64,000 bases of DNA from Candidatus Atribacteria bacterium UBA6251 (lineage in GTDB: Bacteria; Atribacterota; Phoenicimicrobiia; Phoenicimicrobiales; Phoenicimicrobiaceae): the NCBI GenBank assembly GCA_002441285.1, contig DJVR01000064.1, forward strand, positions 313-64,312. The letters are read 5' to 3'. Both the position numbers and the translations under genes were made by a program. The notes under the pieces were generated by a model that made no database searches, was not told where the DNA came from, and was given only the letters and a program-made list of their open reading frames with translations. This document shows positions 24,549 through 30,943 of the stretch, one piece after another; position 1 is the first letter of the stretch; each line of letters begins with the position of its first letter.

Positions 24549-24971
24549 TAAATTAGTGCATAGTATTGATAATATATAATAATTTGTATCTAACCGTTAT
24601 GTTAGTATTATAGAGTATATTATCTTTAACCAGTAGAGATTGAATAGAAATTGAATTAAAAATTAGATGCTGAAAAATTTTTTATTTTATTATATCTTTT
24701 CCTAACTAAGTAACTATTTAATTAACCAAGATACTAACTAATAAAGCAACTAATCAGCTAATATAGCTAAGTAATATAATCGAGCAATCAATAAATTGAT
24801 TAATTGACAAATTAGAAAAGTAATAAATTAATAAATCACGCAATTGAATTATCGCTTACCAAAACAAATAGTTTCAACAGGACCAGCGGTAAGCATAAAC
24901 TGCAATAGTCTTTTTAATACTAATGATTATTTATTATACACTGACCATTAGAAAATCGGAGAATTTCCTAA

Positions 24972-25553
24972 ATGGATGAACTTAAAATTATTGAGCTTTG
25001 TCTTCTGGGAAAGACCCAATATTTTTCCCGGTTAATTGATAATTATCAACATATGATCTTTAACTTAGCTTATCGGATGAGTAATAATCTCCAAGAAGCG
25101 GAGGATATTGCCCAGGAAACTTTTATTAAAGCCTTTCAGCATCTGAACCATTTTAATCCTAACTATAAATTCTCTACCTGGCTTTACCAGATTGCCTTAA
25201 ATATTATGCGAGATAAATTTAAAAAAAAGGAAATACATCCTTATTCTCTGGACACTCCGAAAGAAGGAGCAGATACAGAATCTTTACCTCCCGAACCAGC
25301 AGACCATACCCATAATCCGGAATGTATTCTAACCCAAAAAGAAGAAACTGAACTAATTCAAAGGGCAATTAATGCCCTCCCTTTAAAATATAAAGAAGTA
25401 ATTATCCTGCGACATATTCAAGACTTATCTTATCTAGAAATTGCCCGTATTCTAAAATTGCCAGAAAGCACAGTAAAAATACGCCTCTTCCGTGCTCGTG
25501 AACAATTGAAGCAAGAGATTGAAAAAGAGGGGAGAGGCTGCTTTTTTGATTAA
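24972..25553 (+). CDS. ECF (group 4) sigma-70 family factor
   Basis: Region 2 (AEDIAQETFIKAF...FSTWLYQIALN) and region 4 (ILRHIQDLSYLEIARILKLPESTVKIRLFRAREQL). Confidence 0.9.
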   Translation: MDELKIIELCLLGKTQYFSRLIDNYQHMIFNLAYRMSNNLQEAEDIAQETFIKAFQHLNHFNPNYKFSTWLYQIALNIMRDKFKKKEIHPYSLDTPKEGADTESLPPEPADHTHNPECILTQKEETELIQRAINALPLKYKEVIILRHIQDLSYLEIARILKLPESTVKIRLFRAREQLKQEIEKEGRGCFFD

Positions 25554-25591
25554 TTTTAAAAAATAACCTCTACCCTTTTTTATCCTTTTTT

Positions 25592-25619
25592 TGTAACTTT
25601 TCTCTTAATTTTTCGTAAT
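25592..25619 (+). promoter_or_regulatory. ECF-type promoter candidate (TGTAAC-N16-CGTAAT) upstream of the anti-sigma gene
   Basis: tgtaac (25592-25597), 16-nt spacer, cgtaat (25614-25619). The 12-mer TGTAACTTTTCT is identical to that at 27717. Confidence 0.6.
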
Positions 25620-25715
25620 ATATGGTGAAGAGAAAAGGAACCCTAAAGCCAAAGAGGGAAGGGCAAAAAAATTTAAGTCTTTCCAAAGAATAAAAATTAG
25701 AAAAAAGATGAAAGA

Positions 25716-26405
25716 ATGAATACCAGAATGGATTGTATAAAAATTAAAACGCTACTAAATGAATATATAGAACAGCTTACTAATGAGGATTCTACTAATC
25801 AGATAAAAGAGCATCTTCGCTCCTGTCCATCTTGTCAACAGGAATATCAAAGGTTGCAAAAATTAATCTCATCCCTGCGCAGTTTTACTCCTCAGGAAGC
25901 ACCTGCAGACTTCACCGAAAAGGTGATGGCTAAGATTGCTCAAGAAAAAATAGAAATTGATCCTTCTTTCTGGAAGGAAATAAAAAGAAAGATTACGGTA
26001 CCTCTACCTTCTTTGCCTTCTTTGCGGGTTATGGGAGTATCTAGCGCTCTCATTGTTGTATTTTTATTTTTTGCTTTTAATTATCTCTTTAAACCAGTAG
26101 AAATAATCCCTCTCTGTTCAGCGGAAGTAAAGTTTTCTTTGCGGGTAGGGGATAACCAACAGATTCATACCATTGCGATTGCTGGTGATTTCAATAACTG
26201 GGATCCTCAGGCAAATATCTTGCAGGATTCCGATGGTGATGGCATCTGGACAGCTACCTTAAAACTACCTCCCGGTAGATATGAATATATGTTTGTTTTA
26301 AATGGAGAAAAGTGGTTGCCTGATCCCAATGCCCTACGTTACGTCAAAGATGGTTTTGGGAACAGGAATGCTATCTTAGAGGTAAATAATTGTAGCTCAA
26401 CTTAA
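25716..26405 (+). CDS. Anti-sigma factor: zf-HC2 N-terminus, one TM helix, extracytoplasmic CBM48/AMPK-beta-like glycogen-binding domain
   Basis: HLRSCPSCQQEY zinc-finger motif and TM helix VSSALIVVFLFFAFNYLF. C-terminal IAIAGDFNNWDP...GIWTATLKLPPGRYEYMFVLNGEKWLPDPNA is typical of E-set/CBM48 modules. Confidence 0.8.
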   Translation: MNTRMDCIKIKTLLNEYIEQLTNEDSTNQIKEHLRSCPSCQQEYQRLQKLISSLRSFTPQEAPADFTEKVMAKIAQEKIEIDPSFWKEIKRKITVPLPSLPSLRVMGVSSALIVVFLFFAFNYLFKPVEIIPLCSAEVKFSLRVGDNQQIHTIAIAGDFNNWDPQANILQDSDGDGIWTATLKLPPGRYEYMFVLNGEKWLPDPNALRYVKDGFGNRNAILEVNNCSST

Positions 26406-26478
26406 TCTCAATCTGAATAGGTAAGTTATTCGGTTATTTTGTTATGGTTATCTTGACTAAAAGAAATGGGTAAATAGA

Positions 26479-27483
26479 ATGACAAAAAAGATCCTTAAAG
26501 CTAACAACACAATAAAATTAACTTTAATAAATTCAATTATTTTAATCATTTTAGTCTCTTTGACTACCACTGTTCTTTCTGCTGCAACAGAAGGAGGAGA
26601 TCCAGTTATTGAACAACAATTAGCACAACTAAAAGATATTTTAGATAATTCCTCCTCTTATAGTGAATTCCAGAAGAATCAGATGCTTCTACCAACTTTG
26701 CAGAAGATCTTAGCCAGTGGTATTTCCTTTGAAGAGACTAATGAAATAGTGGAAAAAGGGGTAAACAATTCCTTTGATGCTTATAATATGAAAAAGATTC
26801 TAGATATCCTTCAGGAGACTAAAGAAGAAGATTTGCCAGTAGAACCCTTGATCAATAAAATAAACGAAGGATTAGCTAAAAATGTAAATAAGACTACCTT
26901 AATTTCAGTAATTTCTAAAAAGGCAGAAAATTTGAAAAAAGCTAATGAAATTTTAAGGGCAGCCGAGCAAGAAGGCTTAAAAATTGAAGATGGTGAGGAA
27001 GTCATCAGGATTATCGGGGATAGTCTGGAAAATGATGTCCCTGCCGAATCTTTATCCTGGCTAATTAAGACCGGATTAAAACAGGGGAAGAGCTTAGAAG
27101 AGATTACCGAAATTAGTGATGAACTGGGATATTTAAGTTTAATGGCTTATGATGCTGGCCTATCTTCTGATAAGATAAATCTCTTATTTAATCAATCCAT
27201 AGAAGGCAGTATATTAGTCGAAGAGATATGCGTAACTATTCAAAAGAATTTAGAAGCAGAAATTGCCTTAAATACTATGGGAGGGAATGGAACCAAACCT
27301 TCCTCTCCTGCCAGTGGAGGAGCAACTTTACCTACCTCACCCACTGAAGCAGTGAGTGGCTTTACTGATATGGGAGGAACACCTGCACAAGAGGCAGGAG
27401 AAGCCCCTACCGAAAGTGGTAGTGCTCCTATACCCTCTGAGCCATCTGAAGAGGAGAGCCCAACTCCACCACCGGAAAACTGA
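26479..27483 (+). CDS. Secreted all-helical protein with Pro/Ser/Thr/Gly-rich C-terminal tail
   Basis: Signal/anchor, repeated helical modules, and a C-terminal low-complexity tail (GTKPSSPASGGATLPTSPTEA...PSEPSEEESPTPPPEN). Confidence 0.6.
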   Translation: MTKKILKANNTIKLTLINSIILIILVSLTTTVLSAATEGGDPVIEQQLAQLKDILDNSSSYSEFQKNQMLLPTLQKILASGISFEETNEIVEKGVNNSFDAYNMKKILDILQETKEEDLPVEPLINKINEGLAKNVNKTTLISVISKKAENLKKANEILRAAEQEGLKIEDGEEVIRIIGDSLENDVPAESLSWLIKTGLKQGKSLEEITEISDELGYLSLMAYDAGLSSDKINLLFNQSIEGSILVEEICVTIQKNLEAEIALNTMGGNGTKPSSPASGGATLPTSPTEAVSGFTDMGGTPAQEAGEAPTESGSAPIPSEPSEEESPTPPPEN

Positions 27484-27716
27484 TTAATGAATGTGATTTT
27501 AATCACTATGTGCTCCTTGACAAAAGAATAACTAAGTCAATATCAGGAAAGATTTTAAATTAAAAACTTATCTTAGCACAAAGATAATTCGCTTATCTGG
27601 TGATCTTATAATAATCTTCTTTAAGCTTAATTAACCAGATACACTGTTTTATGGTTTAACATTGCCTGGTGATTATCTTAACAGCTAAATTAGTTAATCC
27701 ACTAACTAACTAATTA

Positions 27717-27744
27717 TGTAACTTTTCTTGACTTTTCTCGTACT
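27717..27744 (+). promoter_or_regulatory. ECF-type promoter candidate (TGTAAC-N16-CGTACT) upstream of the Cys-rich lipoprotein gene
   Basis: tgtaac (27717-27722), 16-nt spacer, cgtact (27739-27744), with the same TGTAACTTTTCT core as 25592. A sigma70-like alternative overlaps it (TTGACT 27728, 17 nt, TAGTAT 27751). Confidence 0.55.
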
Positions 27745-27870
27745 ATTTATTAGTATTTATTTAGTTACTTAGTTAAATAGTTAAAAATTTAATTAATTTC
27801 TTATATTAGGCAAGTTATCTTTATTTTAACTAATTAGTTAACCAATGACTAATAAATGATTATACAGTGG

Positions 27871-27967
27871 TAGTTTCTTCCCGTGCGAGGTCGACGTGCG
27901 GTAGGATTGCTTATGAAATAAAGCATAAAATAATAACTACTCATAAGCCAAGAGTTTAAAGAAACTA
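27871..27967 (+). ncRNA. Candidate structured 5' leader (three-way junction), class unknown
   Basis: P1: UAGUUUCUU (27871-27879) pairs with AAGAAACUA (27959-27967). P2: CCGUGCG-AGGUCGA-CGUGCGG (27881-27901). P3: GCUUAUGA (27909-27916) pairs with UCAUAAGC (27941-27948). A GC-rich patch in an otherwise very AT-rich spacer, about 90 nt upstream of the ATG at 28054. Confidence 0.45.
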
Positions 27968-28053
27968 TTAAAAAAAAAGAAATTAGATTAGTTAATTTCG
28001 CGAAATTAAATAATTAAAAGATAAATGACCTTAAAAAATGAAAGGAGAAAGAA

Positions 28054-28959
28054 ATGAAGAAACTATTCTTGTTGTTATTAGTTGTAGCCTTAGCCGCCTT
28101 CTTATTTGTCGGCTGTATTCCTGTAACTCCCGGAGAAGGTGAAGGAGAAGGTGAAGGAGAATTAGAAGTAACTATAACATTTGAGAATGAATATACTGAT
28201 GCTAAGGGGGTAACCTTTATACCATGTTCTGGCGAGGTAACAGTTACTTTATCGGCTCCTGTAGCTGTAGATAATGTCGTATATGTTGCATTGAAAGAAG
28301 ATGATGGAGACTATGATTGTTCTGAACCACTTACTCCTAATGCCGATCGGACAGTCTGGACTGGAGATTATACTCCAAACATATGCTCTCCTAGCATTGA
28401 TGAGTGCGAACCGTTCTGTGTAGTCGCCCTAGTCAAACATCCCTGCTGCCCCGGTGAAGAGGTTGCCCTAAAAGTAGTGAGAGCGGATTGCACACCACCT
28501 ACACTTGACCTTTTTGTTAAATTTTCAGATTGTACTGATCCTTGCGTAGATCCAGACCCTTGTGTCGAACCATTTGCGGGTGTATCTATGGAATGGACTA
28601 GCAGAACTACCAGTCTCTGCGAGACTACCGATTGTTGTGCAGATAACTGTTCCGGAGTTGGTGGCTGGAGCCTGGTGATAGATCCAGATGAGTGTGAAGG
28701 CCCATGTGATACTGTAGAAGGAACTGGTTGTCATGTAGAAGGAGAATTAGGGTGTGAATGTTTTGCCTATGCTGACACAGGTGAAGTCTGCTACATCATT
28801 GAATTCACTCTCGAAGATAATGTAGGAAATGCAGTTGAAAGCAAGTGGGAACTTTGCTTAGATACCGATTCCGTGGTTTCATTCTCTATAGTCGATGGAG
28901 ACACATTAACTGCAGATTCTGAAGGTTGGTACACAGTTTACAATGATTGTCAACCTTAA
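28054..28959 (+). CDS. Cysteine-rich acidic lipoprotein (24 Cys), unknown family
   Basis: Lipobox LFVGC followed by a (GE)4 linker. 23 further Cys occur in CxxxC, CC and CxC spacings (DECEPFC, HPCCPG, DCTDPCVDPDPC, DCCADNC, DECEGPC, GCEC). Visibly higher G+C and biased codons, with the strong RBS aaaggagaaag. Confidence 0.8.
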   Translation: MKKLFLLLLVVALAAFLFVGCIPVTPGEGEGEGEGELEVTITFENEYTDAKGVTFIPCSGEVTVTLSAPVAVDNVVYVALKEDDGDYDCSEPLTPNADRTVWTGDYTPNICSPSIDECEPFCVVALVKHPCCPGEEVALKVVRADCTPPTLDLFVKFSDCTDPCVDPDPCVEPFAGVSMEWTSRTTSLCETTDCCADNCSGVGGWSLVIDPDECEGPCDTVEGTGCHVEGELGCECFAYADTGEVCYIIEFTLEDNVGNAVESKWELCLDTDSVVSFSIVDGDTLTADSEGWYTVYNDCQP

Positions 28960-29019
28960 CCATTTTAACTGTAATAAATCAAAATAAATAATAGAATAAT
29001 CTTTAAATAGGCAATTGAT

Positions 29020-29053
29020 ACTAAAGGGATATCCAATAGGGTATCCCTTTAGT
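29020..29053 (+). terminator. Terminator-like hairpin after the Cys-rich lipoprotein gene
   Basis: 12-bp stem ACTAAAGGGATA / TATCCCTTTAGT with a 10-nt loop. There is no clean T-run. Confidence 0.5.
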
Positions 29054-29149
29054 ATATATAAATAAAAAATATACTCTTTATTATTATGATTTATACGAAT
29101 TTGATATTCAATAAACAAAATAGCCAAAGATGATAGAAAGCTAATTTAA

Positions 29150-29178
29150 TTGACATCTAAAAACAAGCCCTTTATAAT
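29150..29178 (+). promoter_or_regulatory. Sigma70-type promoter
   Basis: TTGACA (29150-29155), 17-nt spacer, TATAAT (29173-29178). Confidence 0.65.
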
Positions 29179-29245
29179 TAAAAAGAACATAAAATTTAAA
29201 AGAATTGATTTTCAATTAACAATTAAAGACAAAGGGGTAAAATAA

Positions 29246-30040
29246 ATGCAAAAAAAATTATGGGCTATTTCATTTTTATTAATATTATCGTTAGGTTTAT
29301 TTGCGGGCTGCGCTCCTGGGATTACACCTGAACCAGACGAGCCAGAGCCGGAACCAGAACTACCAACCACTGACAATAGGGTGGTAATGGTAGAATTGTT
29401 TGTTGCACCTGGTTGCAGTAGATGTCCTAGTGCTAAATCAGATATGGCACAGTTATTAGATGAATACGGTCTTGATAAAATAGTAGTTTTAGAAGAATAC
29501 GCCTGGAATTATCCGCTTTCCTCAGGATGGGCCACTCCTGAAACTATTAGTAGATATTCTATGTATACTTCCGATACCGCTACTCCCGATGCTTATTTTA
29601 ATGGTTTAAACCAATCTGTTCATCAGGATGATTCAAGTTATAATAATTATAAAAATGCAATTAACCAGGAATTGGAAAAATTAACACAAATTACCATTAT
29701 AGCTTCAGCGTCTAAAGATAATTCTATTAATTCAATTAACATTTCCGGAAGCATTAAAAATATTGGGATTAACACCTTTTATAATATCGAAATAGGAGCA
29801 ATGATTTACGAAGATTCAGTTCAATTAGGAAATAGTATTGCTAATCATGTAGTTAGAGATATTTTAACCCCTGTTCAGGTAGAAAGTTTATTTTCGGGGG
29901 AAACTTATGATTTTTCCTTTACTTCCAGATCAGAAGATTTAAAATGGGTCAGTAATTTTAATAATTTACATATAGTGGTTTATGTTCAATCTCCCAATAG
30001 TTTGACAAAAGAAATCTTACAAGCTTTGTATGTTGAATAA
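29246..30040 (+). CDS. DUF1223-like thioredoxin-fold CxxC lipoprotein, paralogue 1
   Basis: Lipobox LFAGC. VVMVELFVAPGCSRCPSAKSDM...VVLEEYAW...GW...TPDAYFNG parallels the DUF1223 pattern (VELFTSQGCSSCPPAD...HVDYW..GW...TPQ.VVNG). C-terminus ILQALYVE. Confidence 0.7.
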   Translation: MQKKLWAISFLLILSLGLFAGCAPGITPEPDEPEPEPELPTTDNRVVMVELFVAPGCSRCPSAKSDMAQLLDEYGLDKIVVLEEYAWNYPLSSGWATPETISRYSMYTSDTATPDAYFNGLNQSVHQDDSSYNNYKNAINQELEKLTQITIIASASKDNSINSINISGSIKNIGINTFYNIEIGAMIYEDSVQLGNSIANHVVRDILTPVQVESLFSGETYDFSFTSRSEDLKWVSNFNNLHIVVYVQSPNSLTKEILQALYVE

Positions 30041-30160
30041 ATTTATTCTATGATATAAAAACCGCTTTTAAATAAAAATATATTAAGGAAAATATTGATC
30101 GGTGGAGATCAAATTGTAGTTGTAAAAAAAATTAGGAACATTTTTAAATAGGTTATTTAC

Positions 30161-30943
30161 ATGCTAAAAAAATTTTATTTATTTATAGTGATGGTAATAT
30201 TGATTTATTCTTTTATTGGTTGTTTTTCTACTAATCCTATAGAAGAAACGGAAAGCGATAATGGAGAAATACCGGATTCTATAAAAAGGGTAGTTATGTT
30301 AGAGTTATTTGTAGCTCCAACCTGCAGTCGTTGTCCTTCTGCAAAATTAGCAGCGAAATCTTTATCAAATAAATATGGTCTTGACCAATTAGTAATATTA
30401 GAGGAATATGCTTGGGATGATCCTAATGGTGTATATACTGGCTGGTCAACTTACGAAATTTTTAATAGATTTAAATGGTACAGTAAATCTACTAAGACTC
30501 CTCATGCTTTTTTTAATGGCTTAAATCAAAATATCCCTTATTATGAATTTTCACTTTTTAATTATGAAGAAGCTATTAAAGCAGAATTGAATCGTTCTCC
30601 AAAAGTATCTATTTCAGCTTCTTATGATATTTTTGCACAAAAAATTACTATAAATGGGAAGATATATAATATTAGTTCTGGTAATCTAAACAAAATTGTT
30701 ATTGGAGCAATGATTTACGAAGATTCAGTTCAATTAGGAAATAGTATTGCTAATCATGTAGTTAGAGATATTATTGTTTCTGATACAATTGATATTTTAA
30801 CTGAAGGATCTAATATAACTTTTTATTTAGAGTCAGAAAATTTGAGCAATGTCAAAAATATGGATAATATACATATAGTAGTATATGTGCAAGAACCTTT
30901 TATTGAAAACAAGGAAATACTACAGGCATTGTATATAGAATAA
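30161..30943 (+). CDS. DUF1223-like thioredoxin-fold CxxC lipoprotein, paralogue 2
   Basis: Lipobox FIGC, VVMLELFVAPTCSRCPSAKLA...ILEEYAW, C-terminus ILQALYIE. Shares a 69-nt identical block with paralogue 1. Confidence 0.7.
   Translation: MLKKFYLFIVMVILIYSFIGCFSTNPIEETESDNGEIPDSIKRVVMLELFVAPTCSRCPSAKLAAKSLSNKYGLDQLVILEEYAWDDPNGVYTGWSTYEIFNRFKWYSKSTKTPHAFFNGLNQNIPYYEFSLFNYEEAIKAELNRSPKVSISASYDIFAQKITINGKIYNISSGNLNKIVIGAMIYEDSVQLGNSIANHVVRDIIVSDTIDILTEGSNITFYLESENLSNVKNMDNIHIVVYVQEPFIENKEILQALYIE

Follow-up and report, generated by a model that had tools for sequence, protein, structure and literature searches.

The described systems closest to the one considered here are sigma-W/RsiW of Bacillus subtilis, sigma-E/RseA/RseB of Escherichia coli, and sigma-I/RsgI of Clostridium thermocellum. 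In the first two, the extracytoplasmic function (ECF) sigma factor is released by regulated proteolysis of its anti-sigma factor (RsiW or RseA), and RseB has a role of its own in the sigma-E/RseA system. The ECF sigma factors of B. subtilis recognize the −35 element tgaAACntttt, with CGTA being the −10 sequence selective for sigma-W (PMC5758882). In C. thermocellum, RsgI proteins are membrane anti-sigma factors with extracellular carbohydrate-binding modules (CBMs) reporting polysaccharides (PMC10328401, PMC6852018); their partner is sigma-I, not an ECF sigma factor (PMC6582324). The locus compared with these systems below belongs to Candidatus Atribacteria bacterium UBA6251 and lies in a stretch of 64,000 nucleotides (nt) of contig DJVR01000064.1 (assembly GCA_002441285.1, positions 313 to 64,312 of the forward strand), which is referred to as a whole as the window. 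It comprises genes for an ECF sigma factor, an anti-sigma factor bearing a CBM48 module, and a Cys-rich lipoprotein.

By sequence, the module is a SigW/RsiW-type ECF sigma/anti-sigma pair of an Atribacterota bacterium. Its sigma factor is likely to read two sites of the sigma-W type, P1 and P2: transcription from P1 would renew the anti-sigma factor together with a secreted helical protein, and P2 would induce the Cys-rich lipoprotein. The features concerned are as follows (coordinates in the window, with the basis of each call in brackets):

24972-25553, plus strand: ECF sigma factor, 193 amino acids (aa), SigW-like (Pfam, NCBIfam, PDB sequence match)
25527-25591, plus strand: possible terminator closing the sigma gene, a hairpin with a U-rich tract (folding)
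25592-25617, plus strand: putative ECF-type promoter P1 before the anti-sigma gene, −35 TGTAAC, T-tract, −10 CGTA (motif and conservation)
25716-26405, plus strand: anti-sigma factor, zf-HC2 / membrane helix / CBM48 (Pfam, PDB sequence matches)
26479-27483, plus strand: secreted helical protein, 334 aa, with a Pro/Ser/Glu-rich tail (translation; no family match)
27717-27742, plus strand: putative ECF-type promoter P2 before the Cys-rich lipoprotein gene (motif and conservation)
27728-27756, plus strand: sigma-70-like TTGACT-17-TAGTAT overlapping P2 (promoter scan, 9/12 match)
27868-27970, plus strand: three-way-junction leader RNA (covariation, folding)
27992-28009, no strand assigned: invariant 18-bp palindrome TTAATTTCGCGAAATTAA (conservation)
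28054-28959, plus strand: Cys-rich lipoprotein, 301 aa, 24 Cys, lipobox FVGC (translation)

The motif that links the two sites, TGTAACTTTTCT followed 10 nt on by CGTA, is present at 25592-25617 and 27717-27742, in both cases on the plus strand, as claimed by the first-pass annotation of this DNA (its end coordinates were 2 nt too long). Exact matches to TGTAAC-N16-CGTA number 2 in the 64-kb window against 0.02 expected, and 0 of 100 shuffles reached 2. When one mismatch is tolerated, the same 2 sites alone are returned, with 1.27 expected; therefore, the evidence rests on the exact pair and its placement, not on the loose motif. The relaxed pattern nGwAAC-N15-17-CGT[AC] likewise finds just these two sites in the whole window.

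Related loci were collected by a metagenome scan with a profile of the Cys-rich lipoprotein, which yielded 79 loci (designated, like other loci below, by L numbers); a GTDB scan with the same profile gave no match. In 400 kb of non-redundant related loci, TG[AT]AAC-N16-CGTA occurs 38 times against 0.87 in simulated sequence, and in a list to which the window and its two duplicates were added, the motif has the orientation of the genes in 43 of 44 cases. Both sites keep TGwAACTTTT-N12-CGTA in about a dozen diverged Atribacterota loci. The motif is of the same type as the B. subtilis sigma-W promoter (TGAAAC with a T-tract, 16-nt spacing, CGTA), and the ECF geometry proposed for it earlier (−35 AAC and −10 CGT, 16-17 nt apart) has proved to be conserved upstream of the target genes. 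Overall, the TGTAAC-N16-CGTA sites are supported by these comparisons as candidates that behave as real ECF-type promoters.

P1 is situated, in line with the earlier placement of the first motif copy, within the 162-nt gap between the open reading frames of the sigma factor (24972-25553) and the anti-sigma factor (25716-26405). The consensus over 12 lineages is TGwAACTTTT, a variable spacer, and TTTCGTAtTAT: the boxes are kept while the spacer and flanks have diverged, which is the footprint to be expected from a functional two-box promoter. Neither the window nor 10 relatives showed an ECF motif upstream of the sigma gene, i.e., in the intergenic region between it and the preceding tetratricopeptide repeat (TPR) protein gene. 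A classical autoregulated ECF operon was rejected on this account, and the circuit therefore appears as feedback on the anti-sigma factor only, unlike that of sigma-W/RsiW, where the promoter precedes the sigma gene. The hairpin closing the sigma gene is part of the segment 25515-25600, whose predicted fold has an energy of -23.8 kcal/mol (z -3.6). Of the lineages compared, only the closest relative of the window, L041, shares a comparable hairpin, so that termination behind the sigma gene was rejected as a general feature.

The sigma factor consists of Sigma70_r2 (66.9 bits) and Sigma70_r4_2 (64.4 bits), both above the Pfam cut-offs, with no further domains in its 193 aa, and it belongs to the ECF (group 4) sigma factors according to TIGR02937 (115.6 bits, cut-off 42.9). 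The best NCBIfam model is that of SigW (NF007223), with 171.4 bits and, hence, below the equivalog cut-off of 209; TIGR02948 is not reached either (157.8 bits, cut-off 243.1). The best sequence match in the PDB is B. subtilis SigW (5WUQ_A, E 1.1e-35). Judged by these scores, the protein is SigW-like but not a SigW orthologue.

The anti-sigma factor pairs with it as RsiW does with SigW: its N-terminus matches RsiW in the same structure (5WUQ_C, E 5.7e-9), and a zinc-binding domain (zf-HC2, residues 7-41, 25.9 bits against a cut-off of 22.2) is followed by a single hydrophobic helix at ~105-125. The HLRSCPSC sequence and the single hydrophobic stretch are visible in the translation, and the N-terminal H-x3-C-x2-C domain followed by a membrane helix places the protein among class I (zinc-binding, zf-HC2) anti-sigma factors. 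The extracytoplasmic part differs from the RsiW ectodomain: residues 150-225 form a CBM48-like module, with AMPK1_CBM (38.7 bits, cut-off 26.8) and CBM_48 (29.1 bits, cut-off 22.4) both above the Pfam thresholds, so the CBM48/AMPK-beta-like character ascribed to the protein at the first pass holds. The C-terminus matches the N-terminal region of a pullulanase (5OT1) and the CBMs of AMPK beta, and the tryptophans of FNNW and GxxW of the latter are retained in the alignment. The open reading frame has two in-frame ATGs, at 25716 and 25728 (MDCIK...), and the related contig L002 is called at 225 aa from the second; since the relatives begin with MNC..., the ATG at 25728 may be the true start.

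A carbohydrate-binding-type module outside the cytoplasm is also a feature of RsgI, but the window protein cannot be counted among RsgI-type factors: its N-terminal Pfam matches are zf-HC2 and RseA_N only, its partner is an ECF sigma factor, and the predicted targets are not glycoside hydrolases. From RseA it differs in that the RseA_N match is below the cut-off and in the sensor domain. Among the best 120 of its 573 homologues, every one with an organism name comes from Atribacterota. A literature search found no paper on an anti-sigma factor with CBM48 or AMPK1_CBM, nor on an ECF system of Atribacterota, in agreement with the earlier remark that this was not a recognized system.

The gene of the 334-aa protein begins 73 nt downstream of the anti-sigma gene and is always the next one after it in the relatives; its product has no family match in Pfam and NCBIfam. 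In having a third, secreted gene after the anti-sigma gene, and in being an envelope-linked ECF module in a lipopolysaccharide (LPS) and outer-membrane context, the locus resembles sigma-E/RseA/RseB of E. coli, although no sequence similarity of the 334-aa protein to RseB was found with Pfam and NCBIfam. The arrangement extends beyond the closest relatives: an exhaustive HMMER search returned at least 7 further clusters (at 50% identity) of 204-227-aa proteins with zf-HC2 and CBM48. In two loci of more GC-rich lineages (L202 and L204), an ECF sigma gene whose product is 40-43% identical to the window sigma factor stands immediately before such a gene, and an unannotated gene of 261-271 aa comes after the latter, i.e., the classical operon order. 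The trio occupies 7360-10337 in L202 and 7417-9501 in L204, with one or two secreted helical proteins after the anti-sigma factor. In L202, the 271-aa product of the second gene downstream of the anti-sigma gene shows weak similarity to the 334-aa protein, at 27% across 121 aa (E 5.7e-10). A sigma factor and a CBM48 anti-sigma factor followed by a helical secreted protein thus appear to form a broader predicted module, and among the loci examined the split layout with an internal ECF promoter occurs in Atribacterota only.

The second motif copy is indeed located, as had been noted, before the gene of the 24-Cys lipoprotein (28054-28959). P2 is placed 312 nt ahead of the ATG, and the predicted leader measures ~305 nt. 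All syntenic relatives examined but L026 keep the site as TGAAACTTTTCTTGACTTTTATCGTA, which also precedes further members of the lipoprotein family. A separate conserved element consists of AAAAAGAAGGATTTT and, ~13 nt on, CGTCGAATAT or ACGTATA. It is located ~160-250 nt ahead of P2 or the leader (at ~27540-27560 in the window, where it is degenerate; in columns ~110-150 of alignment A2; and in the class-b loci L003-L015), often just after a terminator hairpin.

Several observations weigh against the circuit proposed above. The 44-bp block at P2 is nearly invariant throughout, including the overlapping TTGACT-17-TAGTAT, so conservation alone cannot single out the ECF boxes. Some members of the lipoprotein family elsewhere in these genomes have no ECF motif, the genome may encode further ECF sigma factors of the same specificity, and an ECF promoter before the anti-sigma gene alone is an atypical layout. 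As for the sensor, the lysine of YKF in AMPK is replaced by Met according to our reading of the alignment; in the AMPK beta CBMs, this lysine and the tryptophans mentioned above presumably contact the sugar, and for this reason glycan binding by the CBM48 module is not assured.

The near-invariance of the P2 block is what an explanation by the housekeeping sigma factor would build on: this factor would transcribe the lipoprotein gene via TTGACT-17-TAGTAT, the ECF match there being incidental or a minor promoter and the site before the anti-sigma gene being the only true ECF promoter. This alternative had been raised at the first pass, and it stands insofar as TTGACT and TAGTAT are as invariant across the relatives as the ECF boxes; the sequence scores 9 of 12 in the promoter scan, and the class-b family members have other upstream sequences with no CGTA. 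However, CGTA is inside the would-be sigma-70 spacer and TGAAAC is upstream of its −35 box, and both are nonetheless invariant. The extended motif TGwAACTTTT...CGTAtTAT is, moreover, common to P2 and P1, where the TTGAC box is absent. In L080 and L044, finally, loss of the sigma-70-like −35 box or of its spacing has left the ECF boxes in place, a pattern that favours the ECF reading of P2, with a dual promoter as a possible arrangement. Transcription of the lipoprotein gene by the housekeeping factor is therefore regarded as unlikely, though with a probability that is not negligible.

Two further explanations accept or deny the promoters as a pair. One supposes that both sites are read by another ECF sigma factor encoded elsewhere in the genome, the adjacent one being of a different specificity; ECF sigma factors of the SigW/X/M/V type do overlap in promoter recognition (PMC5758882), but in every syntenic locus the motif and its target genes stay together with the sigma gene, and SigW, the closest characterized relative of the window sigma factor, reads exactly this consensus, making such a division of labour very improbable. 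According to the other, the shared 12-mer has no promoter role and is a remnant of local duplication, part of a mobile cassette of promoter, leader, and signal peptide, or the site of some other protein. The promoter, leader, palindrome, and signal peptide do move together before different lipoprotein paralogues, and short repeats of the TAAC type abound in the intergenic regions. Yet conservation at P1 is confined to the two boxes with their ECF spacing, amid spacer and flanking DNA that has diverged, i.e., a footprint of function rather than of block ancestry, and the explanation is hardly credible.

Under the preferred reading, with the adjacent sigma factor driving both P1 and P2, the former would supply negative feedback only, through the anti-sigma factor and the secreted helical protein, and the latter would switch on one gene, that of a fast-evolving, disulfide-rich lipoprotein of beta-sandwich domains. 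A changed contact of the CBM48 module with a glucan-like or envelope glycan may lead to the release of the sigma factor, probably via regulated proteolysis of the anti-sigma factor, as for RsiW and RseA; both the proteolytic step and the glycan signal are inferred here from the precedents of RsiW, RseA, and RsgI. The three-way-junction RNA of the leader and the palindrome may add further layers of control over the lipoprotein gene.

The Cys-rich lipoprotein, a lineage-specific target by which the module also differs from sigma-W/RsiW, has 294 uncharacterized homologues, and no Pfam domain was detected in the best 120 of the 294. In the family, around 18 Cys columns show little or no variation. 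The AlphaFold2 model (predicted local distance difference test, pLDDT, 84) is all-beta and looks like tandem Ig/FN3-like sandwiches; a fold search of the model against the PDB returned generic Ig-fold arrays only, with no functional lead. The divergence of the lipoprotein outpaces that of the neighbouring proteins (31-41% identity against 55-78%), and its mature part varies while the signal peptide and the leader are nearly fixed. The gene region (28200-29000) has a GC content of 41-45% against 24-39% in the neighbours, which fits the Gly/Glu/Pro/Cys/Asp-rich composition.

Tandem or nearby paralogues of the lipoprotein are common (L017, L021, L063, L068, L015, L003), and in L067 a copy of the gene separates the sigma gene from the anti-sigma gene. 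A second class of Cys-rich genes, with products 62-68% identical to the window protein, is located away from the sigma gene in L003, L004, L005, L007-L011, L014, L015, L019, and L066; these genes have no ECF motif but retain the palindrome and a variant form of the leader RNA. L014 and L019 retain TGTAAC and the T-tract, with TATGATAAT or CATATAAT in place of CGTA.

The DNA from P2 to the ATG comprises, in this order, a variable run of TAAC-type repeats, an RNA element of ~103 nt, and the palindrome. The element is composed of three helices (numbered independently of the promoters): P1, formed by GTAGTTTCTT/AAGAAACTAT; P2, a hairpin with the invariant loop AGGTCGA; and P3, formed by GCTTATGA/TCATAAGC. 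In alignments A3 and A5, 98.6% of the cells are paired and 8 pairs are changed on both sides, a level reached by 0 of 500 shuffles; compensatory changes occur in all three stems. Inclusion of the second-class family genes reveals switches in three pairs of P3 and one pair of P1, each in 12 sequences. The minimum free energy fold of the window copy agrees with the three-way junction. A search of Rfam 15 gave no match at gathering score, just chance-level ones (E about 6), so a covarying structure of this kind represents a candidate new cis-regulatory RNA.

The palindrome TTAATTTCGCGAAATTAA is situated ~45-60 nt upstream of the ATG, and some 60 lipoprotein-family genes, those lacking the ECF motif among them, are preceded by its 14-bp core, AATTTCGCGAAATT. 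Across the 32 sequences of alignment A3 the palindrome is constant, which leaves a DNA operator indistinguishable from an RNA hairpin.

Downstream of the Cys-rich gene, two genes of CxxC lipoproteins follow, which had been assigned at the first pass to the same regulon. The relevant features are as follows:

29018-29055, plus strand: intrinsic terminator after the Cys-rich gene, perfect 17-bp hairpin (-26 kcal/mol, z -5.6)
29150-29178, plus strand: consensus sigma-70 promoter TTGACA-17-TATAAT of the CxxC lipoprotein genes (12/12 match)
29246-30040, plus strand: thioredoxin-fold CxxC lipoprotein 1, HBP35/Omp28-like (AlphaFold2 model, Foldseek)
30161-30943, plus strand: thioredoxin-fold CxxC lipoprotein 2, a paralogue of lipoprotein 1 with 48% identity (sequence)

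A GC-rich hairpin with a T-run is found after the Cys-rich gene in 13 of the 13 relatives examined, and the sigma-70 promoter is conserved as TTGACATC...TATAAT in L006, L021, L039, L042, L046, L049, and L057. The conserved terminator and a promoter of their own therefore make the CxxC lipoprotein genes a separate transcription unit, and their co-transcription with the Cys-rich gene was rejected. The idea of a single regulon survives, accordingly, for the anti-sigma and Cys-rich lipoprotein genes, both preceded by the shared ECF-type motif, and fails for the CxxC lipoproteins, which were thought to be under the same promoter. What links them to the Cys-rich gene is synteny alone, and it is missing for some family members.

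Both lipoproteins carry a CxxC motif and a lipobox, which are invariant across 26 homologues. Their earlier assignment to DUF1223 (PF06764) was rejected: lipoprotein 1 reaches 25.2 bits against a cut-off of 30.7, and lipoprotein 2 has no match. The models of Omp28 (PF11551, 26.9 and 27.2 bits, cut-off 34.9) and NF033782 (47.7 and 30.1 bits, cut-off 150) are also missed by both proteins. By contrast with these family scores, the thioredoxin fold suggested at the first pass is borne out by the AlphaFold2 model of lipoprotein 1 (pLDDT 84), which Foldseek matches to Porphyromonas gingivalis HBP35 (5Y1A, E 1.5e-9, TM-score 0.68, 252 columns) and, as the second-best PDB entry, to Omp28 (2R2C). The fold match together with the invariant CxxC therefore characterizes these proteins as lipoproteins with a thioredoxin domain and a C-terminal beta-sandwich, as in HBP35 and Omp28; they differ from both in their sequences, which are 14-22% identical and do not reach the Pfam and NCBIfam cut-offs, and in being lipoprotein-anchored. 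It is plausible that they could help to fold the Cys-rich protein.

The recurring gene order in the relatives is TPR protein, sigma factor, anti-sigma factor, 334-aa protein, Cys-rich lipoprotein, CxxC lipoprotein, and Wzy-TPR. It is kept in full in L017, L039, L041, L042, L048, L054, L072, and L076 and in part in other loci, with 65-78% identity of the sigma factor in these loci, so the co-occurrence of the genes in relatives, suggested earlier as a check, has been confirmed from the sigma factor through the CxxC lipoprotein. Genes around the module in the window specify LptC/LptA-like and LptF/G proteins, two Wzy_C-TPR proteins, and Wzz, which places it in an envelope, LPS, and polysaccharide gene region, and the presence of LPS-transport genes is another difference from the host of sigma-W/RsiW. 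Short TAACYRGT-like tandem repeats (e.g., ggtaaactggtaaaccggctaactgg) fill the intergenic DNA around the sigma gene and P2; they are found at 24690-24800 and 27690-27860 of the window and in the intergenic regions of L039, L048, L053, and L054.

The motif is also found outside these loci. A GTDB scan with TGWAACTTTT-N12-CGTAWTA returned mostly Bacillaceae and Bacteroidales among the matches listed (at least 120), where the Atribacterota are represented by L116 and L151 only, both repeating known sites. In the unrelated genomes L128, L139, and L093, the motif is directly upstream of ECF sigma genes.

A more far-reaching interpretation would see in the locus a self-glycan checkpoint particular to Atribacterota, in which the CBM48 anti-sigma factor and the helical protein would monitor the cell's own envelope polysaccharide or LPS intermediates and thereby govern a hypervariable, disulfide-rich coat lipoprotein, with a second gate provided by a ligand- or protein-binding leader RNA and a palindromic operator shared by the variable lipoprotein family. 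This interpretation is speculative and considered decidedly unlikely.

The established view of ECF signalling is left intact by the locus. The combination of zf-HC2 and CBM48 in one sensor was not found in the literature searched, and the feedback layout, with a promoter before the anti-sigma gene alone, and the target, a major family of fast-evolving Cys-rich lipoproteins, are further points of note, as is the candidate new structured leader RNA at the same locus. Atribacterota are abundant in subsurface sediments, and their gene regulation is almost unstudied; for this lineage, the locus offers a small ECF regulon with a sigma-W-type promoter that is well defined by comparative data.

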